A DNA stretch of 64,000 nucleotides from Candidatus Dojkabacteria bacterium (GTDB lineage Bacteria > Patescibacteriota > Dojkabacteria > JAHIVN01). Position numbers and translations under genes: made by a program. This document shows positions 4,175 to 44,663 of this stretch, one piece after another (position 1 is the stretch's first letter; each line of letters starts with the position of its first letter). The DNA is taken from assembly GCA_016932045.1 (NCBI GenBank), contig JAFGDO010000032.1, forward strand, positions 127,612 to 191,611, in the 5' to 3' direction. The notes under the pieces are model-generated. The model saw only the letters and a list, made by a program, of their open reading frames with translations. It did not search any database and was not told where the DNA came from.

Positions 4175-5305
4175 TTAATCAAGTCTCATAGGCATAATTA
4201 TATGCAGAAAGTCTTTATCTTCGCTATCCTTGAATACTCCAGGTGCTGTAACTCCATTTGTTTCAAATAGAACTTCCTCTCCTTCTATAGCATTTATCAT
4301 TTCACTTAAGAAGCCAACGTTGTAACCTGTCTTTAAACTATCTCCTTCAACGTCGTGGACTTCTACTATGCTTTCATTTTCTCCTACATCTGCAACTTGT
4401 GCTGACAGCTTAAGAGCGTTTTTCTCAGGCATAAATTCGAATATAGCTTTATTCCCAACTGCAGCTCTTGCAAATATGCTTACCACTTTCACTGTTTTTG
4501 CAAGAGATTCCTTATCTGCACTGAACTTATACTTTGCTTCTTTAGGCATTATTTGCTCGTATTCTGGGAATTCTCCCTCGATCAGCCTTGTAGATATCTC
4601 AACATCTTTTACTTTAAATAACATCTGATTCTTATCGCCAAGGATAAAAACCTCAAGGTCATCATCCTCTTCACATGTATCAAGAGCAATTCTAGCAACT
4701 TCATTCAAAGCCCTTGCTGGAACAATATGTTTAAACTCATCTGTCTTTTTTCTCTCTATATCAATCACCTTTTTGGAAAGGCGAAATCCATCCACACCTA
4801 CCATGGAAATACGCTTTTTAGTAGCCTCAAATAGTACTCCTGTTAGCACAGGTCTTGAGTCATCAGATGCTGAAGAGAAAGTTACCTTTTGCAAGGATTT
4901 TGCAAAAGCACAAGCTTTAACTTTGAAATCGGCTTTTCCTGTTGTCTCTGGTAGGGGAGGAAATTCTTCTGCATCCACAACATTAAACTCAGCACTGTTC
5001 ATTTTGTTATGCACAGAAAGAAGTTTTCCCTCAAGTTCGACATTCAATTTCCCGCTAGAAGATAGCGAATTCACAAATTCCGACAAGGTCTTCGCATCAA
5101 CTGTAATTTTACCTGGAGCTTTTGTATCAGCCCCTATCTGAGTAGATATACCTATTTCAAGATCAGTTGTCGAAAGTATAAGTGTATCTTTTGTTATCTC
5201 CATCAATACATTTGACAAGACGGGGATAGAAGGATTTGAACTTATTGCTTTTGAAACATAATTTAAAGCTTTAGCAAAGTTTTCTTGTGTTACAGTTGCT
5301 CTCAT
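4175..5305 (-). CDS. dnaN: DNA polymerase III beta subunit (sliding clamp)
   Basis: Three-domain clamp, N-terminus MRATVTQENFAKALNYVSKAISSNPSIPVLSNVLMEI, immediately downstream of dnaA. Confidence 0.9.
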   Translation of the reverse strand: MRATVTQENFAKALNYVSKAISSNPSIPVLSNVLMEITKDTLILSTTDLEIGISTQIGADTKAPGKITVDAKTLSEFVNSLSSSGKLNVELEGKLLSVHNKMNSAEFNVVDAEEFPPLPETTGKADFKVKACAFAKSLQKVTFSSASDDSRPVLTGVLFEATKKRISMVGVDGFRLSKKVIDIERKKTDEFKHIVPARALNEVARIALDTCEEDDDLEVFILGDKNQMLFKVKDVEISTRLIEGEFPEYEQIMPKEAKYKFSADKESLAKTVKVVSIFARAAVGNKAIFEFMPEKNALKLSAQVADVGENESIVEVHDVEGDSLKTGYNVGFLSEMINAIEGEEVLFETNGVTAPGVFKDSEDKDFLHIIMPMRLD

Positions 5306-5811
5306 GTTTCTATGACTAATATTATTTATTATATATATAAAGTAATAGTAATAACCTTGGTGGATTTGTTTATAATATTGAGAATCTCTTTACCAAGAAA
5401 AGAAACTCCTAGTCTTTCTTTGTGGATTTTAAATTTTGCTTGTATTTAGATATATACAACGAGTATCTTATTTTAAAAAGCTCTTGTCAAGGCATTTGTG
5501 AGAGTGAATAATTAGTAAAGAATTGTGGATAATGTGTGAACCGTTTTTACAAGTTCTATCATTCTCCTTTAAGCTAAAAATTCACATAAAATAAAAAAAT
5601 TAGACAGTCTAAGGAAAAAGCCTTGTCTATCAGTCAATTACTTATTCACAAAGTTTTAAAGATTCATGAGATTTATCCACTTTTGCAGTCAACAGAATTT
5701 TTAAAGAACGATAAGAGTTTCTAAAGAATTATCAACTTATACACAAATAGAACTAAAAGTGAAAAGTGGGAATGCAGATTATCTTTTGTTCTGTTTTTAC
5801 CTTTTAAAAAA
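5306..5811. promoter_or_regulatory. candidate oriC: dnaA-dnaN intergenic region with DnaA-box cluster and AT-rich unwinding stretch
   Basis: Perfect DnaA box TGTGGATAA (5524-5532, reverse complement of TTATCCACA). Near-consensus boxes TTATTCACA (5642-5650), TTATCCACT (5673-5681), TTATACACA (~5716-5726), TGTGGATTT (5421-5429), GGTGGATTT (~5359-5368). Very AT-rich run 5306-5350. Confidence 0.6.
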
Positions 5812-7197
5812 TTATTCTGTGACCGGTTTGTAAATTTCTGCTATAAGATTGTTTATTTGTTCTGAAAAAGTTAGATTGGCCTGCATTTTACTTTCAATTT
5901 TGTCAATAGCATGAATAGCAGTTGTGTGGTCATTTCTTTTTAGAATCTCTGAGACTTCCTTAAATTTATAACCAAGCTCCTTTCTCAGAATGTACATGCA
6001 AACCTGACGTGCAAATGCTATGTCTTTTGTTCTGCGTGGGCCTTTGAGATCTTTTGCATTTACTCCAAATTCTTTTGCAACATTTTTAAATATGGTGGAA
6101 ATTTTTATAGTCTTTCTTTTTGAATTAGGATCTTTTCCAAGAATCTTTGCGATTTCTGCAGGTGTAAGTTCTCCTTCTTTTTTCATTGAATTGTACAAGC
6201 TGATCTTTTGAAGCGAGCCTTCAAGTTCGCGTATGTTGTCAGTTGATATTTCAGCAATGGCTTTAAGAATGCTGTCTGAGAGATCTATCCCGTATTCCTT
6301 TCTTTTTTGTTCGAGAATTGCAACTCGCTCTTCATAATCGGGCCTTGATATGTCTGCGACCATGCCGCCTTGAAATCTGGATATAAGTCTTTTTTCAACA
6401 TTGGGTATTTCCTCAGGTGCTCTGTCTGAAGTTATAATAATTTGCTTAGATTCGTGGAAAAGTGCATTAAATGTATTGAAGAATATACTTTGGGTTTCTC
6501 TGCGATTTGAAAGCAGCTGTATATCATCTATAAGCAATGCATCCAATTTCCTATACTTGTTTCGGAATTTTTCCATAGTGTTAGCTTTAATGTTTTCAAC
6601 CATATCATTTAGAAAGTTTTCTGATGTACAGTAAAGAACTCTTTTTTCAGTGTTGCCATCCATTATAGATCTTCCTATCGCATGAATCAGATGGGTTTTT
6701 CCAACACCCGTAGGACCGTATATAAAGAAGGGATTGTAGCTTTTGCCTGGGTTTTCAGAAACTGAAATAGCAGCAGCATGTGCAAGCCGGTTAGAAGCTC
6801 CAACTACAAAATTGTTAAAAGAGTATCGCTCATTTAGATTTGAGTCTTTTATCCGTTGAAATGAAGCCTCATCTATTCCATTCTTTACTTGAAGAATTGG
6901 TTCCTGAGGGGTGTCCATGCTTTTAGTGACCTGCAAGTTTTCAGCCAGCTCCTTGTCATATACGAATTCTACTGTCAACTCTTTTCCATATACGAACGAG
7001 AGAGTTTTTTCTATAAGAGCTCGATGTTTTTGGGAAAGCCAGTCACCTGCGTAGCTATTTTTGACTCCGATAACTGCGTTTTTGCCGTTTATATCTTTTA
7101 GCCTTGTATCTTTGAACCATGTTTTAAAATGAGCAGGGGAGTCAAGTTTTATCTCTATTTGGGCTAGTGTTTTTTTCCATATTTGGTTGATGTCCAT
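5812..7197 (-). CDS. dnaA: chromosomal replication initiator protein DnaA
   Basis: Walker A GPTGVGKTHL, AAA+ motifs, C-terminal DNA-binding domain (…DIAFARQVCMYILRKEL…). Confidence 0.95.
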   Translation of the reverse strand: MDINQIWKKTLAQIEIKLDSPAHFKTWFKDTRLKDINGKNAVIGVKNSYAGDWLSQKHRALIEKTLSFVYGKELTVEFVYDKELAENLQVTKSMDTPQEPILQVKNGIDEASFQRIKDSNLNERYSFNNFVVGASNRLAHAAAISVSENPGKSYNPFFIYGPTGVGKTHLIHAIGRSIMDGNTEKRVLYCTSENFLNDMVENIKANTMEKFRNKYRKLDALLIDDIQLLSNRRETQSIFFNTFNALFHESKQIIITSDRAPEEIPNVEKRLISRFQGGMVADISRPDYEERVAILEQKRKEYGIDLSDSILKAIAEISTDNIRELEGSLQKISLYNSMKKEGELTPAEIAKILGKDPNSKRKTIKISTIFKNVAKEFGVNAKDLKGPRRTKDIAFARQVCMYILRKELGYKFKEVSEILKRNDHTTAIHAIDKIESKMQANLTFSEQINNLIAEIYKPVTE

Positions 7198-7461
7198 ATT
7201 GTTGTTTTAGTCAAGCAAAAAATTTAGTTTCTATAAACAAGATCAAATTTAACACTAGGCCTAAAAATAGGCTTAAATTTCTGGCAGTGGATAGCAGTTT
7301 TTATGTGTGGATGATGAATATAATTTAGATGATTGTGGATAACTTGTCAAAAAAGTGGATAATTAAGTATTGAGATTAGTAGACTAGAGATTAAAGTATA
7401 TTTGAGGAATAAAGTGGAACGAAAGGGGTAGTTTCTGATAAAATGCAAAATAGAAGACAAA
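7198..7461. promoter_or_regulatory. second DnaA-box cluster upstream of dnaA (dnaA promoter/autoregulation or second half of a bipartite origin)
   Basis: TGTGGATAA (7334-7342), AGTGGATAA (7354-7362), AGTGGATAG (~7286-7294), TGTGGATGA (~7306-7314). Confidence 0.55.
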
Positions 7462-7944
7462 ATGGCAGAAGAAACTATTGATAATACAACTGCAGCAAAA
7501 TTATTTGCAGTAGAAAGCTTAAGCTATGCACCCTTTAGTGATCTAATGGTAGGGCAGGTGTGTTTATTGTTTGTTCCAGATGAATCTGAATTAGTGGGAC
7601 AGGAGGCGAGTTTGGCAGAGGAAGATGACCGGGGAAGAAGATATGCAATATTGGATAGAACAAGTCTAGCGGGTGTTGTGGCTCTAAGGTTTCGTGGCAG
7701 TATTACTCTAAACGAAGTAAGAGGTCCTAATGGGCAGGTATTGAAGTATGGATATCCAACTCAAGGGTACCTTGTTGAGGTTCTAAAGAGTGATGGTGGA
7801 ACAAGTTTCAAGGTTGATAGAGTTGTGTATATACATACAATACTGGATACAAAATCAAGAACTGGTTTTGGGATAGAAACTGTGAAGGACTATTTAAAAA
7901 TTGTGAAGTTTGATTTGAAGCAAGTGGTAGTGAGAAGAGGGTAG
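7462..7944 (+). CDS. hypothetical protein (no recognisable domain; atypical composition)
   Basis: 160-aa ORF with few lysines compared with neighbours; starts immediately after the DnaA-box cluster. Confidence 0.5.
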   Translation: MAEETIDNTTAAKLFAVESLSYAPFSDLMVGQVCLLFVPDESELVGQEASLAEEDDRGRRYAILDRTSLAGVVALRFRGSITLNEVRGPNGQVLKYGYPTQGYLVEVLKSDGGTSFKVDRVVYIHTILDTKSRTGFGIETVKDYLKIVKFDLKQVVVRRG

Positions 7945-7949
7945 GTAGC

Positions 7950-8237
7950 TTAATTAGAAGTGATATCAAGAATTTTTATTTCATAAGGTACTGGGGCTCT
8001 AACTGTGACTGTTGCTCCTTTTTGTTGTCCAATAATGGCTTTTGCTACGGGTGAATCTGGACTGATAGAATCAACTCCTAGAAGAGGGGTTTCGTGTTCG
8101 TGTAATATAGCTACAGTTTCATTGAATGTTCCGTCTTCATCATGTCCTTGAAACGTAACAACATCCCCATGTTGGACAACCAAATGTACTAGGGCTTCGT
8201 TTTGATGAGCTTGTGCTGTATCAGGACCTGCTACCAT
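7950..8237 (-). CDS. GreA/GreB C-terminal (FKBP-like) domain-only protein
   Basis: …DSISPDSPVAKAIIGQQKGATVTVRAPVPYEIKILDI matches the GreA C-terminal domain signature (SPIAxALIGKxxGDxV…xEYEIxxI). No N-terminal coiled-coil and no upstream ORF extension. Confidence 0.55.
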   Translation of the reverse strand: MVAGPDTAQAHQNEALVHLVVQHGDVVTFQGHDEDGTFNETVAILHEHETPLLGVDSISPDSPVAKAIIGQQKGATVTVRAPVPYEIKILDITSN

Positions 8238-8411
8238 GTTTGAAGTGTTAAGCTTATAGGGTAATTATACTAAAGGGGGCAATATTAGGTAAAGCATTAG
8301 GGAAGAATTAACTCTCTGTCATTACACAAGATCTTGCATAATGATGTAAGAGAAAGTTGTAAATTCATATATCTAGTTGATATAATAGCCTATATTTGTT
8401 AGAGAAATTAG

Positions 8412-8834
8412 ATGGAAACAGACCCAAGGGCAAATGGAACGGATATATATAATGAGCCAGATTATGCTCAAGGTGGAATTCTAATAATAGAAAGGGGGCA
8501 ACCTTCTCAAACAGTCTTACGCGTTGAATTAGGACCGGTGCAAGATATGGATGAAGTTAAAATCATCAGATTGGAGGTGGCAGGTTCAGGGTCAACTAAT
8601 CATTTTGTTATGGTTGGAAAGGTAGGAGAGTTAGATTTAACTGCTTGCCTGGTAAAAACTTCAGTAACATTGAATATGACAACAGAACAGACGGATGAAG
8701 GGCCTTTCAGAGTATTCTTTGAACCTTCAGAAAGAAAGTTTTACGCAATGGCTTTACAGGCTGCCAGAGGTATGGAAGTCCAGGCGGCATTAAGGGTATG
8801 TGCCGAGGATCTTTTAGGCGCTACACTTCGCTAG
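8412..8834 (+). CDS. hypothetical protein (atypical composition)
   Basis: 140-aa ORF, no recognisable motifs. Confidence 0.45.
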   Translation: METDPRANGTDIYNEPDYAQGGILIIERGQPSQTVLRVELGPVQDMDEVKIIRLEVAGSGSTNHFVMVGKVGELDLTACLVKTSVTLNMTTEQTDEGPFRVFFEPSERKFYAMALQAARGMEVQAALRVCAEDLLGATLR

Positions 8835-8892
8835 TAAACATTTTATTCCACCTGTTGTGAATAAACTTTCCCGTATGAGATAATATCTACGT

Positions 8893-9675
8893 ATGTATAC
8901 ATCTATTAATGGCTTAAAGCTTAACTTTGAAGTTATTGGGAAGGGGGAGCCTATACTTCTTCTACATGGATGGGGGGGGAGTATAGCTAGCTTATCGCCT
9001 CTCGCTAATCGCCTAGCAAGTTGCCTAAAAGTAATTCTACTTGACCTTCCTGGTTTTGGTAAGTCGGAATCTCCACAGAAAGATTTTTGTCTTGACGATT
9101 ATGCGGAAGTTTTAGAAGAATTCCTGAAGAAGCAGGGGATAAAAGAAGTGTACATCTTTGGTCATTCTTTTGGAGGCGCGGTGGCTATTAAGCTTGCTGT
9201 GAGAAGGAATATTCAACTTAAGAAACTGATTCTTTGCAATGCTTCTGGGATTAGAAAGCCAGCAGCAATCAGCCATCAGCTATCAGCTCTACCTAAGATT
9301 GGCAAAAGGTTATCCAAGATTCCTGTAGTAAAGGGTGTGTATTTCTTTTTTCGAAAATTCTTCTACTACTACATTCTTCATAACCGGGATTATATTGACT
9401 ACCAGGAAATAGCAGGGACATTCAGGAAAGTTATTGCTGAGGATCTAACACCAATATTAAAGGAAGTTAAGGTACCAACGTTGCTTCTTTGGGGAGAAGA
9501 GGATAAAGATACGCCAGTTAGTCACGCTAAGATAATGAAATTAAAAATTGAAGACAGTCCTGAGCTTGTCGAAGGAAAAGTGAGATTGAAGATTTTCAAG
9601 GGTATTGGTCATGGTTTGCCCAAATTTAGATCGGACTTATTAGTCGATGACATTGTTGAATTCTTGAAGAGCTAA
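8893..9675 (+). CDS. alpha/beta hydrolase
   Basis: LLLHGWGGS oxyanion region, nucleophile elbow GHSFGG, C-terminal GIGHGLP. Confidence 0.8.
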   Translation: MYTSINGLKLNFEVIGKGEPILLLHGWGGSIASLSPLANRLASCLKVILLDLPGFGKSESPQKDFCLDDYAEVLEEFLKKQGIKEVYIFGHSFGGAVAIKLAVRRNIQLKKLILCNASGIRKPAAISHQLSALPKIGKRLSKIPVVKGVYFFFRKFFYYYILHNRDYIDYQEIAGTFRKVIAEDLTPILKEVKVPTLLLWGEEDKDTPVSHAKIMKLKIEDSPELVEGKVRLKIFKGIGHGLPKFRSDLLVDDIVEFLKS

Positions 9676-9775
9676 AAGTTTTCCTCAAGTTTTATTCTTT
9701 TTTCAATTAAATCAAAGTGCGAAAAAAATTCTTTTTGTGCTAAGATAGTAGTAATTAGTTATAAACAAAAATTCC

Positions 9776-11500
9776 ATGTTTAGAATTTTATTTTTTCTCC
9801 TCTTTGTCTTTTTCTTCTTCTTTACACACATAATTAAAAGGGCTTTTGAACATACTTATCTTTGGCAGATAAAAGAATATCGTTGGGACAGGTTTAGGGT
9901 TTTTCTAAGGGAGTCAGGTCTATCATTAGGGACCGTTATTCCTTCGGTAATAGCAGCGGTATTATCTTTTTTTGGTATTCTTCTTTGCGAATTTTTGCGT
10001 GTAAAATGGCTGTATCTGGTAATAGTAGTTGGATTTGGTTATTACGTTCATCTGACTTTAGTTACTTTTACAAGTATTTTAGACGGCAAGTTGATTCGTC
10101 CGAAAATAAGCATTCGGAATATGCTGATTGTCGGAACTGTTGCTCTTCTTTCTCTTATACCCATGATTGTTCCTATTAAATATTTTCATCTGCATTTCAA
10201 CTTACCCGAGCGTGAGGGAAAAGAGATAGAATCAGCAGAAGTCATTGAGATATTTCCGAAAGAAACAGAAGAAGGAATTTTTATCATTCCCTTAGAAACA
10301 GCTACTGCTGTTTTATATTTTAAATGTTTATTTATATTTGATCTTGCCCTTCCGGTTTCTATCGGTGCGATGGTGGCATTTACTTCAATTTTTGTTCATT
10401 TTTCAAGAAAAAGGAAAATACGGCTGGCAAAGGAAAAAATTAAGAAAATAGAAAATTTGAAAATCATAGGAATAACTGGTAGTTATGGAAAGACTACAAC
10501 GAAAGAAATTCTGCACATGATCTTGGCTTCAAAATATAAAACCTATGCAACACCTGAAAACGTTAATTCTGATGTCGGAGTTGCAATAACAATACTTGAG
10601 AATGTTGGGGTGCTTGCAGATGTCTTTATCGTTGAGATGGGTGCTTACAAAATAGGTGAGATCAAAGCTATCTGCGACATTGTACAGCCTGACGTTGCTG
10701 TCATTACAGCTATAGCTGAGCAGCACCTAGCTTTGTTTGGAACTATTGAGAATACATTGAAAGCAAAGTATGAGATAGTGGAACACTCTAAACCCGAAGC
10801 AGTTATCGTTCTTAATGGAGACAGTGACTTGGTACTTAGAGTAGCTGGCAAATCAGATAAACGTGAAGTTTTATATTCGACAAGAAAAGAGCTTGATGTT
10901 TGGGCGAGTGATATCAAGTCAAGAAGTGATAGAGTTGAGTTTAATGTTCATTATAAGGGAAAGGTGCAACGTGTAGAGATAAGAATGCTGGGAGAGCATA
11001 ACATCTCAAATGTACTGGCGGCAGTTTCGGTTGCCTTACAGTTGGATATGGAGCTTTCTGAGGTGGCGAAAGCCTTAAAAAAGGGGTCGGAAACTAAACA
11101 AATAGGGCGTTTGTCAGTGAGGAAGAGTAAATACGGTTTTCGAGTAATAGATGATAGTTACAATTCAAATCCAGCCGGATTTGCAGCAAGTCTAGATTTA
11201 TTAGATAAGCAAAAAGCAAATAAGAAGGTTTTAGTAACTATAGGTATACTTGAACTTGGCGGTATAAGGAAAAGCATATACGAGGAATTGTCCAAGAAGA
11301 TCGTAAGTACTTGTGATGCCGTAGTTACAACTGACGAAAAACTGGTCCGAGCTGTAAAGGAGCAGAGAAAAAAGATTCAAATAATATTTGATAAGGGTAT
11401 AGATAAACAGCTAGCTTTTTTGCGAAACGAAGTTGGCAAGAGTGACGTTGTATTATTTGAGGGGCCAAATTTGAGGTTGATTGAGGAGATAGTCAAGTAG
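9776..11500 (+). CDS. Mur ligase family protein (MurF-like central and C-terminal domains) with about 220-aa N-terminal polytopic membrane domain
   Basis: Residues 1 to about 220 contain 4-5 hydrophobic helices. P-loop GITGSYGKTTTKE at about residue 226. C-terminal VIDDSYNSNPAGF motif typical of MurF. Single continuous ORF. Confidence 0.8.
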   Translation: MFRILFFLLFVFFFFFTHIIKRAFEHTYLWQIKEYRWDRFRVFLRESGLSLGTVIPSVIAAVLSFFGILLCEFLRVKWLYLVIVVGFGYYVHLTLVTFTSILDGKLIRPKISIRNMLIVGTVALLSLIPMIVPIKYFHLHFNLPEREGKEIESAEVIEIFPKETEEGIFIIPLETATAVLYFKCLFIFDLALPVSIGAMVAFTSIFVHFSRKRKIRLAKEKIKKIENLKIIGITGSYGKTTTKEILHMILASKYKTYATPENVNSDVGVAITILENVGVLADVFIVEMGAYKIGEIKAICDIVQPDVAVITAIAEQHLALFGTIENTLKAKYEIVEHSKPEAVIVLNGDSDLVLRVAGKSDKREVLYSTRKELDVWASDIKSRSDRVEFNVHYKGKVQRVEIRMLGEHNISNVLAAVSVALQLDMELSEVAKALKKGSETKQIGRLSVRKSKYGFRVIDDSYNSNPAGFAASLDLLDKQKANKKVLVTIGILELGGIRKSIYEELSKKIVSTCDAVVTTDEKLVRAVKEQRKKIQIIFDKGIDKQLAFLRNEVGKSDVVLFEGPNLRLIEEIVK

Positions 11501-11644
11501 CTAAACAGTTAGATAACAAAATGGTTGAATAGCTTTCTTGGTAATCGGATATTGATTATGGAATATCATTGATTGTAGATTGATAATTGTTGGTTGTTTG
11601 GAGTATAGCTCGTTTGTTAAATTAGTTATTATCCATTTGAACCT

Positions 11645-12889
11645 GTGATCTTCACCTCCCTTAGCCCAAATACGCAAAGAGATGATTTTTTATTAGCACT
11701 AAAGACGATTCTAAAGCCGGGTGAATACTTCGAAGGCGAGTATATAGGTAAAGTGAAAAAATGGTTTAAAGACTTTTTCGGGGTCTTTCATGTTTCAGTA
11801 TATGAGAGCGCTCGGAGTGGTCTGTACTTTGTATTGAAGGAGCTTGGGATAAAAGAGGGCGATGAAGTTTTGTTGCAGGCATTTACATGTGTTGCGGCGG
11901 TTAATCCTGTGAAGTGGACCGGTGCAAGGCCGGTGTTCGTTGACATAAATCCAAAAGATTTTAACATGGATATAGATGACTTGGAGAATAAGGTGAATGA
12001 AAAAACAAAAGCCATAATAGTTCAGCACACTTTCGGCTACCCTGCAAAAGTAAATGAAATAAAGGAAATTGTTGGTCGCAAGGGAATCTATATCATCGAG
12101 GATTGTGCTCACACAATCGGAACAGAATACATGGGAAAGAAATTAGGTCTATGGGGCGATGCCGGAGTTTTTAGTCTTGGGAGAGATAAAGCTGTTTCAG
12201 CAAGTTTTGGAGGAGTTGTTATCACAAATAGAAAGTTTGGCAAGAATTTAGAAGAGAAAGAGAAGTTCTTAAGTTTTCCACAAAAAAAGTGGGTAAAAAA
12301 ACAGATTTTGTATACGATAGTAGCATTTTTAACAAGGACTCTCTATGAAGTGTTATTTATCGGGAAGCTTGTACACTATATTGCAACACGGTGGAATTTG
12401 GTTGAAAAGGCAACTACTGAGGAAGAGAAAAAAGAAGGTGAAATGCCGGATAATGCGCGTTCCAAACTCCCAAATGCCTTTGCAAGACTGGCATTTAACC
12501 AGCTTAGAAAAATTGGAATTCTGAATAAGAAGAGAAGAGACCTTTCTCACTTATATGTAAAGAGACTCTCAAAGATAGGTCTTGAAGAAGTGAAACTGCC
12601 TGAGTGGAAAATCGGTGAACATTTCTATCCCTTGCGATTTCCTTTGCTTGTAAAAAGAAGAGATGAGCTGTTAAAATTTGCCCAAGAGAGGGGAATGCTG
12701 CTGGGCGACTGGTATGACGTACCAATTGCTCCAAAACAGGTTGATCAAGTGAAGACAGGATACAAACAAGGGAGTTGTGTTTACGCCGAGAAAGTTTGCG
12801 AAAGTATTTTAAATCTGCCACTTCATTCTGACTTAACAGAAGAGGATGCTCTAAAGGTGATTGCAGTTATAAGGGACTTTTATCTATAA
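11645..12889 (+). CDS. DegT/DnrJ/EryC1/StrS-family PLP-dependent aminotransferase
   Basis: SARSGLYFVLKELG…EVLLQAFTCVAAV…IIVQHTFGYPA…IIEDCAHTIG…GRDKAVSASFGG pattern of sugar aminotransferases. GTG start. Confidence 0.8.
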   Translation: MIFTSLSPNTQRDDFLLALKTILKPGEYFEGEYIGKVKKWFKDFFGVFHVSVYESARSGLYFVLKELGIKEGDEVLLQAFTCVAAVNPVKWTGARPVFVDINPKDFNMDIDDLENKVNEKTKAIIVQHTFGYPAKVNEIKEIVGRKGIYIIEDCAHTIGTEYMGKKLGLWGDAGVFSLGRDKAVSASFGGVVITNRKFGKNLEEKEKFLSFPQKKWVKKQILYTIVAFLTRTLYEVLFIGKLVHYIATRWNLVEKATTEEEKKEGEMPDNARSKLPNAFARLAFNQLRKIGILNKKRRDLSHLYVKRLSKIGLEEVKLPEWKIGEHFYPLRFPLLVKRRDELLKFAQERGMLLGDWYDVPIAPKQVDQVKTGYKQGSCVYAEKVCESILNLPLHSDLTEEDALKVIAVIRDFYL

Positions 12890-12964
12890 GAAGCGGTTCA
12901 TACAGTAGAGCATACAGTTGTGAGTACAACTGTATATACGATATATTTCTAATTAATAGAATTT

Positions 12965-14005
12965 ATGGAAATTAAACAAATAGAAGATAAAAGTTTATGG
13001 GAGAAATTTATCCTGAAGCAGAATTATTCGTCTCCTTTTCTCTCGTGGAACTGGGCGGAGTTTGAGAGGAGCTTAGGCAATAAGTTTGAGAATTACGGTT
13101 TGTTTGAGGGAAAAAATCTAATTGGGCTTATTCCTATAAAGTATGTTGATGCAAAAAGAGGGAAGTACTTACACCTTCGTCATGGGCCAATTTTTAATTT
13201 TAACAAGGAGGAAATTTGGGCAGAATTCTTCAAATTTATAATAAGAAAGGCGAGGGATGAAAAATTCTGGTTTGTTCGGTTAAGTCCTCTTATTCCTCAA
13301 GATCTCGAGCTTAAGTATGGTGAAGTTTTGTCGCGTCTTAAGGAAAGTCCTATGCATGACGTGGATGCTGAAATTACCTGGGTATTAAACCTTTCTCAAA
13401 GTGAAGAAGAAATTATGCAGAACATGAGGAAGAATACAAGGTATTATATCCGAAAAGCTATAAAAGATGGAGTTGAGATTCTGAAAACAAAAAATCCAAA
13501 GTATCTAGAGGAGTTCTGGAATATCTACTCCGACACAGTAAAGAGACAGAAGTGGACTGCTTATTCAAGAGATTACATAGAAAAAGAATTTAATGCATTT
13601 GTTTCAGATGATGAGATAGATCTATATCTTGCCAAATACAAGGGTGAGTTTATTGCAGCTTCATTAATTCTCTATTACCAAAACCAGGCTATTTATCATC
13701 ATAGTGGCACTATAGAGCAATACTTAAAGATCCCCGCAAGTTACCTGATTCAATGGGAGGCCATAAAAGAAGCAAAAAGGCGGAATTTAAGCTGGTACAA
13801 CTTTTGGGGCATCTCTCCTCTTGTTATGGAAGATGGGGAATACAAAGCTCAGGCAGGTCATCCTTGGACAGGACTTACTTTTTTTAAACTTGGTTTTGGA
13901 GGAGAGGTGAGGCAATTTGTTCATGCAAAAGATTTGCCCATAAATAAAAAGTACTTTGTAACAAGGTTCTTTGAGAAAATTGAGAAGTGGAGAAGAGGAT
14001 ATTAA
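12965..14005 (+). CDS. FemAB-family aminoacyl-tRNA-dependent peptidyltransferase-like protein
   Basis: N-terminal LWEKFILKQNYSSPFLSWNWAEF and later YLHLRHGPI and YIRKAIKDGVEI motifs of the FemAB/FemX family. Confidence 0.8.
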   Translation: MEIKQIEDKSLWEKFILKQNYSSPFLSWNWAEFERSLGNKFENYGLFEGKNLIGLIPIKYVDAKRGKYLHLRHGPIFNFNKEEIWAEFFKFIIRKARDEKFWFVRLSPLIPQDLELKYGEVLSRLKESPMHDVDAEITWVLNLSQSEEEIMQNMRKNTRYYIRKAIKDGVEILKTKNPKYLEEFWNIYSDTVKRQKWTAYSRDYIEKEFNAFVSDDEIDLYLAKYKGEFIAASLILYYQNQAIYHHSGTIEQYLKIPASYLIQWEAIKEAKRRNLSWYNFWGISPLVMEDGEYKAQAGHPWTGLTFFKLGFGGEVRQFVHAKDLPINKKYFVTRFFEKIEKWRRGY

Positions 14006-14173
14006 ATAATATCCAATTATCAATAATCAATCTTCAATTAATAAGGAGGAATTATGAATGAAGAATTGAGGAAGGTAGAAGGTAATAAGTAGAAGAAATG
14101 TTGTAGGTGGAAATTTGATTTGTTAAATTCTCACACTTAAAACATTTTCAAATTATTGATTAAATGGAGAAGA

Positions 14174-15559
14174 ATGAATAAATTAAAAGCTTTTGCATCT
14201 AAATTGTTTCTTAAGTATTTGCAAATTCTCACAAGAAGCTATGTAAAGAGGCAGAATATTGATGTGTTCGGATTAACCGGAACAGCAGGCAAGACGACTT
14301 TGACAATTGCATTATATGAAGTGCTTTCAAAGAAGTATAAGTCCGGCATGACATATACTCAAGGCAAAGGTCTGAATAGTGAAACCGGAATTCCTTTTGC
14401 AATGCTTGGAGTAAAAGTTGATGGATACTCTATAGCTGATTGGGTGCGATACTTTTTTGAATTTACCTGGAACTTCTTCTTCAAAAAGTGTCCTTATGAA
14501 AAGTATGTTATTGAGATGGGTGTAGATAAACCGGGTGACATGGACTTCATCCTTTCGATGACGAAGGTAGATCTAGGTATATTCTTAACAATAGGAAAGG
14601 TTCATGCTGCAAATTTTGAGAAGTTGCTGGAATCCAAATTCAAAGATAAAGAGCTGGCTGAACTGAAAGAAAAGGTTGACGACGTTTTGATGGAGTTAAT
14701 ATTTGAAGAAAAAGCGAAGCTTATCAGAAAATTGGATTCTGACGGGTGGGCAGTTTTAAATTATGACGAACCGATTATTCGTAATCTAGAAAAAGTTACA
14801 AAGGCAAAGACTATTACATTCGGGTTATCAAAAGATGCTGACATTTCAGGTGTTATTACAAAGAATACACCAAGTGTTTTCGAGGCAGAAGTTTCATATA
14901 AAGGAAAAAGTGAGAAAATTGAAATTACAAAATATTTTATAAACGAGAATGTACTTAGGACGCTGCTTGCTGCAATTGCAGTTGGTATAACTTATGAAAT
15001 TCCTTTGAAAAAATGTATCAGCGCAATAGAAGGAATGAATTTTCCTCCCGGAAGGATGACAAAGATAGAGGGAATAAAAGACACAGTTATTATTGATAGC
15101 TCATATAATGCATCAACGCAAGCTGTAATAGAAGCTCTGAATAATCTTGCGTTATTTAAAAAACGAGAAAAGATTGCAATACTTGGGGATATGAGAGAGC
15201 TTGGTAGAGCAGAAAAGAGAGAGCATGAGGAGGTAGCAAGACATGCAGCGAATAGAACAGATAAACTGATTGTGATTGGACCTGCAATGAAAAAATATTT
15301 TCTACCGGAAGTGATAAAGCAAGGATTCGATGTAAGCAGTATCTGGCACTTTGATAATACTTGGAAGGCACTGCGGTTTATACAAGAAAAAGTAATAAAA
15401 GGAGGAGAAGCGATCCTTATAAAGGGCTCACAAAATACTTTGTTTCTTGAAATTATTGTTGAGGGGCTGATGAAGGATAAGGCAAAAGTAGAAGATATTT
15501 TGTGTAGGAGAGGGAGTTTTTGGGAGAAGAAGAGGAGACAATTAAAAATTAAAAATTAA
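14174..15559 (+). CDS. Mur ligase family protein lacking the canonical N-terminal substrate domain (MurF/CapB-like)
   Basis: P-loop GLTGTAGKTTLT only about 35 residues from the start. C-terminal IIDSSYNASTQAV…ILGDMRELG typical of the MurF C-domain. ATG at 14174 with GGAGA upstream; the ORF track starts at TTG 14156. Confidence 0.8.
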   Translation: MNKLKAFASKLFLKYLQILTRSYVKRQNIDVFGLTGTAGKTTLTIALYEVLSKKYKSGMTYTQGKGLNSETGIPFAMLGVKVDGYSIADWVRYFFEFTWNFFFKKCPYEKYVIEMGVDKPGDMDFILSMTKVDLGIFLTIGKVHAANFEKLLESKFKDKELAELKEKVDDVLMELIFEEKAKLIRKLDSDGWAVLNYDEPIIRNLEKVTKAKTITFGLSKDADISGVITKNTPSVFEAEVSYKGKSEKIEITKYFINENVLRTLLAAIAVGITYEIPLKKCISAIEGMNFPPGRMTKIEGIKDTVIIDSSYNASTQAVIEALNNLALFKKREKIAILGDMRELGRAEKREHEEVARHAANRTDKLIVIGPAMKKYFLPEVIKQGFDVSSIWHFDNTWKALRFIQEKVIKGGEAILIKGSQNTLFLEIIVEGLMKDKAKVEDILCRRGSFWEKKRRQLKIKN

Positions 15560-15561
15560 TT

Positions 15562-16206
15562 ATGAAACTGTTTTTTTATTCTGGAGGAACAAGAAAGTTA
15601 AATCACAATCTAAACCTTGAACTTATAAAATTACTATCTCTAAGTTCAAGAATAACATACATACCTTCTTCATCGGATATTAAGAGAAAAAATTTCGATA
15701 AATTTAGAGAATGGTTTGGGTTTTATGGTTATAAGAATTTTCTGTATTTTGATCTTGATAAAGAATTTGACAAAAGAATGATTTCGGAAGTTGAAAAATC
15801 CGAGGCAGTCTATCTTTCTGGGGGTAATACATTTCATTTTATTCATTTAATAAGAAAAAGAAAATTTAGCAGGGTTCTTAGAGATTTTGTATCTTGTGGC
15901 AAAGTACTGATAGGCTTAAGTGCTGGAAGTATGATTATGACGCCAACAATTAGAGTTTCAGTTGATTATCATAATCATCTAGGTGATTTCGATGAGCTTA
16001 ATGTTGATGAAATTAAAAGTTATAAGGGGTTGAGTTTAGTAGACTTTGAGTTTTTACCGCATTTCAATCTTAAACCAAAAAGGAACTTTGCTGAAAATTA
16101 TTTAAAGAGAAGAGGACGAGACATATACACTTGTTGTGATGGGAGTGGAATTATCGTTGAAGGTAAGAAACTAAAACTTATTGGAGAGGTAGAAAAGATC
16201 TGTTAA
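15562..16206 (+). CDS. peptidase S51 family (dipeptidase E / cyanophycinase-like)
   Basis: YLSGGNTFHFIHLIRK…GLSAGSMIMTPTI: Ser nucleophile in GxSAG context, characteristic of S51. Confidence 0.75.
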   Translation: MKLFFYSGGTRKLNHNLNLELIKLLSLSSRITYIPSSSDIKRKNFDKFREWFGFYGYKNFLYFDLDKEFDKRMISEVEKSEAVYLSGGNTFHFIHLIRKRKFSRVLRDFVSCGKVLIGLSAGSMIMTPTIRVSVDYHNHLGDFDELNVDEIKSYKGLSLVDFEFLPHFNLKPKRNFAENYLKRRGRDIYTCCDGSGIIVEGKKLKLIGEVEKIC

Positions 16207-43373: not shown

Positions 43374-44663
43374 ATGGCAAAGAGAATAATTAGTGCTTTA
43401 GATGTAGGATCTGCAAAGGTGTGTGCAGTGATAGCTTCTGTTGAGGAAGACGGTGTGCCGCAAGTGATAGGAGTTGCAAGTCAACCCAGTGCTGGAATTA
43501 AAAAGGGAGTTGTTGTAAATATTGATGATTCAATAAATACAATTGCCTCTACTCTCGAGGCTGCAGAAAGGATGGCGGGCATTACTGTTCCATCTGTATA
43601 TCTTTCTGTATCAGGAAAGCATATTACAAGTACAAATAATAAGGGTGTGGTAGCAGTTTCGACCGAAGAGATTATTCCCGATGATGTGTTCAGAGCTATT
43701 GAAAGTGCTAGGACTGTGTCAATTCCAGCCGGAAGGGAGATACTTCATGTTATACCAAGGGAATTTATTGTTGATTCTCAGGGGTGCGTTAAGGATCCAA
43801 TAGGCATGACGGGTACAAGGCTTGAAGTGGATGCGCATATTGTATCAGCTACATCTACGGTGTTGCATAATCTGTTAAAATGTGTTCAGCAGTTGGGATT
43901 AAAGGTTGACGATGTTGTTTTCAGTGGATGGTCGTCTTCTACAGCGGTCTTGACTGATACAGAGAAAGAACTTGGTGTTATGTTACTCGATATTGGTGGG
44001 GGAGTCACTTCTATTTCGACTTTTGTTGAGGATGCTATTACATATAGCGGATGTGTCCCATTTGGAGGACTGAATGTTACAAGTGATCTTGCTATCGGAC
44101 TTAGGGTTAGTTTAGACGATGCCGAAAGGATAAAAACAAATATTGCGGATATTATAAGGAGCCAAGGTGGTAAAAGGCAGGTTGACATAGGAGGCAAAAA
44201 GAAGGGAGAGAAAGGAAAGAAAAGAGCTAAGGTTGTTGATGTCTCATCTCTTGGCATAGAAGGGACCGATGAGGTTGATAAAGAACTATTTGATGAAATT
44301 ATTGAAGCAAGATTGAGTGAGATTTTCGACCTAGTCACAGCACAAATTGCACAGTCCGGCACAGATACAACGATGCCAGCTGGTGTAGTTGTAACTGGAG
44401 GGAGTGCTTTACTGCCGAATGTTACAAAGATTGCGAAAAAAATATTTAAAGTTCCTGCTCGAGTGGGATATCCAAAAGGCTTGGAGGGACTCGTAGATGA
44501 GATATCAAGTCCTGCATTCTCGACTATACAAGGTTTAATTTTGTATGGATCGAAAAGCAATGGGGAAGGTAGGATGAATGAGGGGGTGACTATGACGGGT
44601 GGAGGAGGTGTTGGGAACATTTTATCAAAAGTTGGGGGATGGTTTAAGAATTTGATACCTTAG
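43374..44663 (+). CDS. ftsA: cell division protein FtsA
   Basis: Actin-fold motifs ALDVGSAKVCAV, DIGGGVT, VVTGGSALL. Confidence 0.9.
   Translation: MAKRIISALDVGSAKVCAVIASVEEDGVPQVIGVASQPSAGIKKGVVVNIDDSINTIASTLEAAERMAGITVPSVYLSVSGKHITSTNNKGVVAVSTEEIIPDDVFRAIESARTVSIPAGREILHVIPREFIVDSQGCVKDPIGMTGTRLEVDAHIVSATSTVLHNLLKCVQQLGLKVDDVVFSGWSSSTAVLTDTEKELGVMLLDIGGGVTSISTFVEDAITYSGCVPFGGLNVTSDLAIGLRVSLDDAERIKTNIADIIRSQGGKRQVDIGGKKKGEKGKKRAKVVDVSSLGIEGTDEVDKELFDEIIEARLSEIFDLVTAQIAQSGTDTTMPAGVVVTGGSALLPNVTKIAKKIFKVPARVGYPKGLEGLVDEISSPAFSTIQGLILYGSKSNGEGRMNEGVTMTGGGGVGNILSKVGGWFKNLIP

Follow-up and report, generated by a model that had tools for sequence, protein, structure and literature searches.

A 64,000-nucleotide stretch of a Candidatus Dojkabacteria genome (assembly GCA_016932045.1, contig JAFGDO010000032.1), referred to here as the window, carries a complete gene for a membrane-embedded MurF-type ligase (positions 9776–11500, + strand; 574 codons with an ATG start in the list of open reading frames). 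We call its product the TM-ligase, after the five transmembrane (TM) helices that precede its catalytic domains. MurF is the ATP-dependent ligase that finishes the peptidoglycan stem peptide by adding D-Ala-D-Ala to the N-acetylmuramic acid (MurNAc)-tripeptide, and we consider it probable that the TM-ligase is the form of MurF found in Patescibacteria, or candidate phyla radiation (CPR), and in Anaerolineales, and that it works at the membrane. MurF is its best match by three methods, NCBIfam models, PDB sequences and Foldseek, and the main argument for calling it the MurF of these organisms is that its orthologues occupy the murF slot beside mraY.

The initial annotation, made from the letters alone, had described about 1.7 kb of open frame in an AT-rich genome with no stop between a membrane part and a ligase, and both points stand. 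G+C content of the window is 37%, its base composition gives a stop frequency of 0.071 per codon (about one in 14 codons), and the chance of 574 open codons under that composition is approximately 4e-19, with 13–53 stops in each of the remaining five frames across 9776–11500. One frame runs through both parts without an indel between them. The longest homopolymer in the gene is T7, and A6 is the longest at the domain junction, so there is no obvious indel-prone site. The 574-residue protein is identical to MBN2016459.1, deposited for Candidatus Dojkabacteria bacterium on a contig of 202 kb, which is annotated as "UDP-N-acetylmuramoyl-tripeptide--D-alanyl-D-alanine ligase".

Likeness to MurF

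The central ATP-binding domain of a Mur ligase occupies residues 233–420 (10472–11035, + strand; Pfam Mur_ligase_M, PF08245, E = 1.2e-42) and the C-terminal domain residues 444–563 (11105–11464, + strand; Mur_ligase_C, PF02875, E = 1e-10), the latter with a D460-D-S-Y-N motif and E493-L-G. In Mur ligases the C-terminal domain binds the incoming amino acid or dipeptide. The features of the superfamily are therefore present, namely PF08245 with a P-loop of the form GxxGK[TS] and the Rossmann-like PF02875 domain. The P-loop itself, T234-G-S-Y-G-K239-T-T (10475–10498, + strand), is invariant in 74 homologues, as are the catalytic-type residues E287, H317, K331, E333 and N347 of the central domain, D460/Y462 and E493. 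Judging from alignment to the structures 3ZL8 and 4QDI, the invariant central-domain residues appear equivalent to the Mg-binding and carbamyl-lysine positions.

Of the NCBIfam models, murF (TIGR01143) matches best, at 261.3 bits, with MurD at 101, MurE at 97 and MurC at 87 bits; the TM-ligase is nearer to MurF than to MurC, MurD, MurE, Mpl, MurT, FolC or cyanophycin synthetase. The seven best PDB sequence matches are all MurF (1.3e-37 to 6.8e-26), and the ten best Foldseek matches of the AlphaFold model are MurF structures, the ligase part matching 4QF5, 4QDI, 3ZL8 and 4CVM with E-values of 1e-25 to 1e-22. The TM-ligase thus shares with MurF (TIGR01143; 3ZL8, 4QF5/4QDI, 4CVK-M, 2AM1, 1GG4) the central and C-terminal domains, the fold, the P-loop, DDSYN and ELG, is 25–29% identical over about 365 aligned columns to the Thermotoga maritima, Acinetobacter baumannii and Pseudomonas aeruginosa structures, and has orthologues beside mraY in dcw clusters.

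However, the TIGR01143 alignment spans profile positions 60–415 of 418, and in the solved MurF chains the alignable part begins only at residue 66 (T. maritima) or at about 100–116, from which we conclude that the MurF N-domain is missing. Residues 1–228 matched no Pfam family at E ≤ 0.01, and the N-domain family PF01225 was not found in the TM-ligase. Where MurF has an N-domain of approximately 80–100 residues, the TM-ligase has a 228-residue five-TM module; it also differs from MurF in being co-transcribed with genes for a hydrolase, a DegT-type enzyme and a FemAB-family enzyme. The initial annotation had read the protein as Mur-ligase central and C-domains joined to a membrane domain instead of a nucleotide-binding N-domain, and the Pfam, NCBIfam, PDB and Foldseek results bear this reading out. 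Because two defining features of the curated MurF family, the N-domain and the score cut-off, are lacking, the TM-ligase is a variant and not a plain member of that family.

Position of the orthologues

In the window, the TM-ligase gene lies between an alpha/beta-hydrolase gene (8893–9675, + strand) upstream and, downstream, genes for a pyridoxal phosphate-dependent aminotransferase of the DegT/DnrJ/EryC1 type (11645–12889, + strand) and a FemX-like, aminoacyl-tRNA-dependent transferase of the FemAB family (12965–14005, + strand). Across 84 related loci, nearly all have these genes in the sequence hydrolase, TM-ligase, (DegT), FemAB, with the hydrolase present in 71, DegT in 56 and FemAB in 65; loci without one of these partners are mostly cut by contig ends. 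Overlaps of 1–4 bases between the called cassette genes are frequent.

Genes of the dcw cluster adjoin the cassette in half of the loci (42 of 84). In 13 of these loci the order is FtsI-MurE-MurC-MurB-MurA-hydrolase-TM-ligase-DegT-FemAB-MraY-(MurD)-FtsW-MurG-FtsA, so that the orthologues stand after murE and before mraY, which is the gene position of murF (for example in loci L039, L043, L052, L056 and L072). Lying between murE/murC/murB/murA and mraY, the cassette occupies the murF position. We also considered whether a canonical murF is present among the ligases that flank the cassette, but these are MurC, MurD and MurE by NCBIfam, above the respective cut-offs, and none is MurF.

Several further features of the cassette and its dcw neighbours were seen. 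The hydrolase/TM-ligase/DegT/FemAB cassette is kept across CPR lineages and Anaerolineales (8893–14005 in the window, 9300–13834 in L039, and 83 other loci). Some Parcubacteria have a second FemAB gene between the hydrolase and the TM-ligase, and many WS6/Dojkabacteria loci have no DegT gene. In L039, a class IV (D-amino-acid/branched-chain) aminotransferase gene lies between murD and the cassette (8370–9248, − strand), and its product is a possible supplier of D-amino acids. The MurEs of CPR dcw clusters are often only 394–461 residues long, without most of the uridine diphosphate (UDP)-binding N-domain, yet score above the MurE cut-off (L027 3412–4797, L030 3485–4768, L037 462–1748, L043 2247–3479, L072 689–1870 and L023 7859–9175). 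The murE profile aligns only from position 61–72 in five of these six; L043, the sixth, is matched from position 90 of the sibling equivalog NF001126. The MurE of L039 is full-length, at 514 residues.

The membrane domain

Membrane and structure prediction, which the initial annotation had proposed as a check, gave five TM helices and a confident AlphaFold model of the whole protein (built with 74 homologues; predicted local distance difference test, pLDDT, 92.5; predicted template modelling score 0.85). The N-terminal domain, residues 1–228 (9776–10459, + strand), consists by hydropathy and the AlphaFold model of five TM helices and a cytoplasmic linker helix. All of its elements are on the + strand: TM1 spans residues 2–24 (9779–9847), TM2 51–72 (9926–9991), TM3 78–101 (10007–10078), TM4 115–137 (10118–10186) and TM5 175–207 (10298–10396), the last with a conserved D188..P193. 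Between TM4 and TM5 lies an acidic, variable extracytoplasmic loop with a small beta-hairpin and lower pLDDT (residues 138–174, 10187–10297), which is missing from shorter family members. A basic linker helix with conserved A218 and K221 (10397–10459) is continuous with TM5, and in the model one long helix, residues 173–224, leads from TM5 directly into the first strand of the ligase.

Conservation was assessed in an alignment of 26 diverse N-domains (A1) and in a 74-sequence full-length alignment (A2). A first motif, Y28-L-W30-Q31-I-K33-E34-Y35-R36-W-D38-R39 (9857–9892), faces the cytoplasm at the end of TM1 and on the short helix after it; A2 shows no variation at W30, Q31 and E34, and A1 none at Y35 either, while the rest of the motif is at least 90% conserved. 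The second cytoplasmic motif, R108-P109-K110-x-S/T-x-R114 (10097–10117), lies between TM3 and TM4, and its P109 is invariant in A2. Lysines and arginines number five after TM1, four after TM3 and nine after TM5, counting cytoplasmic loops and linker, and the TM4-TM5 loop contains 10 aspartates and glutamates. By the positive-inside rule, this distribution places the N-terminus outside and the C-terminus, with the ligase, in the cytoplasm. In the alignments and the model, the near-invariant residues of the module are all predicted on the cytoplasmic face, where the ligase is also located. A single helix would suffice as an anchor; a five-helix module whose invariant residues point toward the catalytic domain therefore suggests a role beyond anchoring, in the binding of a substrate or a partner.

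No Pfam family is common to the 26 membrane-domain members at E ≤ 1, and a separate model of the membrane domain (pLDDT 91.8) found no fold match in the PDB with Foldseek (best E 1.5, template modelling score 0.2). An origin of the domain from FtsW, MraY or MurG was considered and rejected, as hhalign comparisons with CPR alignments of these proteins gave probabilities of only 7.9%, 1.4% and 0.1%, respectively.

Occurrence of the architecture

The initial annotation had allowed that an indel might separate the two parts or that no homologous fusion might exist elsewhere, and neither proved to be the case. A homologue search was made in a collection of 5.8 billion proteins and the 120 best matches were taken. 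The same continuous architecture was present in 113 of them, each longer than 480 residues, starting with Met and having more than 150 residues ahead of the P-loop, and all 113 have two to six hydrophobic segments before it; identity was 30–60% and coverage 93–100% for many of the best matches. When the membrane-domain profile built from A1 was run against a library of 1.84 billion representatives, 1145 cluster representatives were matched at E ≤ 1e-3 and 678 at E ≤ 1e-10, the membrane domain standing nearly always ahead of the ligase. Among the best 150 profile matches, 125 are 490–630 residues long and the domain begins within the first 20 residues in all except P0220 and P0248; the lengths leave no space for another fusion partner.

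A scan for the pattern WQ[ILV]KEYRxD in one genome per GTDB species matched 160 species, from which 80 loci were fetched. The groups matched include Dojkabacteria/WS6, Microgenomates (Gottesman-, Levy-, Roizman- and Blackburnbacteria), Parcubacteria (Staskawicz-, Nealson-, Andersen-, Magasanik- and Kerfeldbacteria), Gracilibacteria, Peregrinibacteria and Anaerolineales. Nine records with a typical CPR cassette (L007, L017, L020, L026, L030, L032, L034, L039 and L078) are labelled Romboutsia, Pacearchaeota, Gammaproteobacteria or Nitrospirota, and we suspect that these labels reflect mis-binning or default labelling.

This membrane-embedded MurF-type form is standard across Patescibacteria/CPR. 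We found no description of the architecture in topical full-text searches of the literature, and databases name the protein simply MurF. That the architecture is unusual, as the initial annotation had it, is true against the textbook MurF; within Patescibacteria it is the norm, and there the databases already say MurF.

A conserved A9 junction in sister species

A single continuous frame is a property of the window genome, but it does not describe the whole family, as in the closest relatives the two parts lie in different frames. In four close species (L003=L004=L008, L006, L007 and L009) gene calling gives two genes, one for the membrane part and one for the ligase part, and in all four the junction reads CGT AAA AAA AAA (R-K-K-K), this CGT-A9 stretch lying at L003 5951–5962, L006 10643–10654, L007 927–938 and L009 5755–5766. 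The equivalent place in the window is at approximately 10403–10420, corresponding to S210-R-K-R-K-I215 of the protein. There the run is interrupted (AGA AAA AGG AAA ATA) and no recoding is needed. In the sister species the membrane frame stops 0–13 codons past the A9 and the ligase is read in the −1 frame; slipping back by one base, or adding a single A to the mRNA, yields ...RKKK-I-x-x-A-K-x-K-I...IENLK-V/I-GITGSYGKT, which is colinear and gap-free with the window protein ...SRKRKIRLAKEKIKKIENLKIIGITGSYGKT. Whichever way they are decoded, the colinear split genes show that the two parts belong together.

RKKK is also the C-terminal sequence of three more stand-alone membrane proteins, of other clusters; a fourth such protein, P0147, is simply the product of L009. 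The A9 is the sole run of A or T of nine or more in each of the four loci, and there is no such run in the 64-kb window. Contig names beginning with k141_ or NODE_ suggest short-read assemblies made with MEGAHIT or SPAdes in different studies. We regard the A9 run as non-random because of the RKKK ends elsewhere, its uniqueness within each locus and the different origins of the assemblies. The junction is accordingly a candidate site of programmed recoding, by transcriptional slippage or by −1 frameshifting. A −1 frameshift is known from A AAA AAG in E. coli dnaX. No frameshift-stimulating hairpin was found downstream of the A9 in the sister species (z of −0.06 to +1.2 against mononucleotide shuffles).

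Runs of nine A are a classic substrate of transcriptional slippage, as in Thermus dnaX and in Shigella mxiE, where slippage gives the longer product (PMC1088944). As in the A9 of Thermus thermophilus dnaX, which allows both a short and a long product, the run stands at a domain boundary (PMC1088944), a likeness that holds for the sister-species variant only. The two cases differ in that standard decoding in the sister species would be expected to yield only the short membrane protein, the long form requiring slippage as it does in Shigella mxiE; the window gene differs further in having no A9 run. Going by these sequences, the sister lineage may either recode to obtain the fusion alongside a membrane-only product or have a two-subunit enzyme.

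Proposed function and alternatives

From sequence and model, we predict that the TM-ligase adds D-Ala-D-Ala to MurNAc-tripeptide. The last Mur-ligase step would then be carried out beside MraY, on the cytoplasmic side of the membrane. By the mechanism common to all Mur ligases, the tripeptide carboxylate would be activated as an acyl-phosphate at the expense of ATP and then attacked by the incoming dipeptide, and the product would be handed to MraY at the membrane surface. The surface formed by WQxKEYRxDR and RPK may stand in for the lost N-domain by holding the substrate at its diphosphate-sugar end or by serving as a docking site for a partner, and the carrier could be UDP or undecaprenyl-diphosphate.

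Several observations weigh against this assignment. The TIGR01143 score is below the curated cut-off of 288.6, a shortfall that corresponds to the missing N-domain, the profile aligning only from position 60. The N-domain of Mur ligases binds the UDP-MurNAc-peptide precursor (Shirakawa et al., PMC10214165), and with the domain that holds this precursor missing, canonical substrate binding cannot be assumed. The C-domain motif of the TM-ligase is G-I-L-E-L-G, whereas P. aeruginosa MurF and a second ligase in the window, lig2, have G-D-M-x-E-L-G. Ligases of the lig2 type (410–465 residues) are widespread in CPR, are often annotated MurF and could carry the MurF function. Finally, the cassette in the window adjoins dnaA and not a dcw cluster, so that the positional argument rests on orthologues: the two ligases and ftsA (43374–44663) were the only Mur ligase or dcw genes found in the window, which therefore offers no positional evidence itself.

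lig2 is a soluble, divergent MurF-like ligase of 467 residues (14156–15559, + strand; Pfam, NCBIfam), also without an N-domain, with about 40 residues ahead of its P-loop. It scores 190 bits against TIGR01143 and is 22% identical to the TM-ligase. If lig2 were the real MurF, the TM-ligase could be an accessory peptidoglycan-modifying ligase that acts on membrane-bound precursors together with FemAB, DegT and the hydrolase, adding or remodelling a side branch or an extra residue, by analogy with MurT/GatD and with FemXAB acting on lipid II. The wide occurrence of lig2-type ligases is in keeping with this idea, as are the sub-threshold murF score, the constant co-transcription of the TM-ligase with enzymes of a precursor-decoration type (FemX-like and DegT) and the lack of a UDP-binding domain, a lack shared with MurT, which acts on lipid II (PMC3266927). 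Nevertheless, we think the accessory role unlikely. lig2 has no N-domain either and is far more divergent from the solved MurFs (3e-16, 62 bits, against 1e-37, 133 bits for the TM-ligase); its central domain contains insertions, and its G-x-H-N motif is altered. Its family lies near clpB/prfA and outside dcw clusters, in a Chisholmbacteria genome (two assemblies, L086/L087) and in the CPR genome L088, whereas the TM-ligase stands in the murF slot beside mraY in 13 loci whose clusters contain no other MurF-like gene. Since lig2 is further from the solved MurFs and lies outside dcw clusters, we prefer the TM-ligase as the D-Ala-D-Ala-adding enzyme.

A second alternative concerns the order of the pathway. 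The TM-ligase could be a MurF that acts after MraY, on undecaprenyl-diphosphate-linked MurNAc-tripeptide, its membrane domain binding the polyprenyl-diphosphate carrier in place of UDP. The UDP-binding domain has after all been swapped for a polytopic domain and not for one anchoring helix; the invariant residues, which are basic or aromatic, lie at the cytoplasmic membrane interface, as would be expected of a site for a diphosphate-lipid head group; most of the N-domain is likewise gone from many neighbouring CPR MurEs; and MurT is an example of a Mur-ligase fold that lacks an N-domain and yet acts on lipid II (PMC3266927). However, MurC and MurD of the same clusters retain their N-domains, the short MurEs are not membrane proteins, and no similarity of the module to MraY, FtsW, MurG or any solved lipid-carrier-binding protein could be detected. 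We therefore regard as rather improbable both this reading of the enzyme and its extension, in which the last Mur-ligase step, possibly along with the MurE step, takes place on an undecaprenyl-diphosphate-linked precursor in Patescibacteria and some Chloroflexota, with the five-TM module as the lipid-carrier site. If it were true, a large part of bacterial diversity would build its stem peptide in a non-textbook order, helped by the hydrolase/DegT/FemAB set.

That an assembly or sequencing indel, or a gene-calling error, joined a membrane-protein gene to a truncated Mur ligase gene has a negligible probability and was rejected: although four close relatives have the two parts annotated as distinct genes, every such split falls at the conserved A9 and becomes colinear after a −1 shift, the window fusion is in frame with junction homopolymers of A6 at most, and the fusion recurs in over 100 independent sequences that come from many studies and were assembled with many programs.

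Comparison with known systems

Returning to the TM-ligase as a membrane-working MurF, a close parallel outside the MurF family itself is MurT of the MurT/GatD lipid II amidotransferase, which likewise has a Mur-ligase fold without a UDP-binding N-domain and a membrane-bound precursor as substrate (PMC3266927). The MurT structures 7Q8E and 9SQ9 are among the Foldseek matches of the TM-ligase model. MurT, however, is soluble, has a DUF1727 C-domain and needs GatD, whereas the C-domain of the TM-ligase is PF02875. No gene for GatD or a glutaminase was found among the cassette genes. Assignment of the TM-ligase as a MurT was rejected on its score of 39 bits against NF045635, for which the cut-off is 800.

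PgsB/CapB of poly-gamma-glutamate synthetase is a Mur-ligase-like amide ligase in a membrane complex. PgsB associates with the membrane through partner proteins or a short anchor, and it is not MurF-like in sequence. It is absent among the NCBIfam matches listed for the TM-ligase (25 of 26).

The catalogued chimeras of Mur enzymes are MurE-MurF, MurC-Ddl, MurC-MurB, MurG-MurC, MurD-FtsW and MraY-MurG (Shirakawa et al. 2023, PMC10214165). MurD-FtsW and MraY-MurG resemble the TM-ligase in that precursor enzymes are fused to polytopic membrane proteins of the same pathway, but in the chimeras the ligase retains its three domains and the partner is a known enzyme (PMC10214165), whereas the membrane part of the TM-ligase replaces a ligase domain. 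A chimera of this type was rejected for the TM-ligase, as its membrane part is unrelated to FtsW, MraY or MurG (hhalign below 8%). The survey covered only UniProt proteins of more than 600 residues from named species, and the words "transmembrane", "Patescibacteria" and "candidate phyla" were not found in its main text (PMC10214165).

Gene surroundings

Directly after lig2, the window has a gene for an S51 peptidase of the cyanophycinase/dipeptidase E family (15562–16206), a pairing seen only in the closest relatives (L006, L009). On the other side of the cassette lies dnaA (5812–7197, − strand), and the same adjacency of dnaA and cassette occurs in L003. The GC skew changes sign at about 6000, from negative before to positive after (window approximately 5300–7460), and a chromosomal replication origin is probably located beside the cassette. 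Three open reading frames lie between dnaA and the hydrolase gene at 7462–8834 (7462–7944, + strand; 7950–8237, − strand; 8412–8834, + strand), of which the two on the + strand had no Pfam match. As L003 has just one 64-residue frame at this position, the three may be a lineage-specific insertion.

Implications

The membrane module constitutes a new domain family of about 1100 clusters for annotation, and the sister species offer a possible instance of programmed slippage within a core cell-wall gene. MurF, which is essential and a target for antibiotics, is regarded as a soluble protein of three domains. If the TM-ligase is indeed the MurF of these organisms, an entire bacterial radiation would have a conserved membrane module in place of the substrate-anchoring domain, encoded along with three additional conserved genes in the dcw cluster. 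This raises the question of how Mur ligases recognise their substrate without a UDP-binding domain, and also that of whether, in ultra-small and mostly uncultured bacteria, the boundary between the cytoplasmic and membrane stages of peptidoglycan synthesis lies where the textbooks place it.

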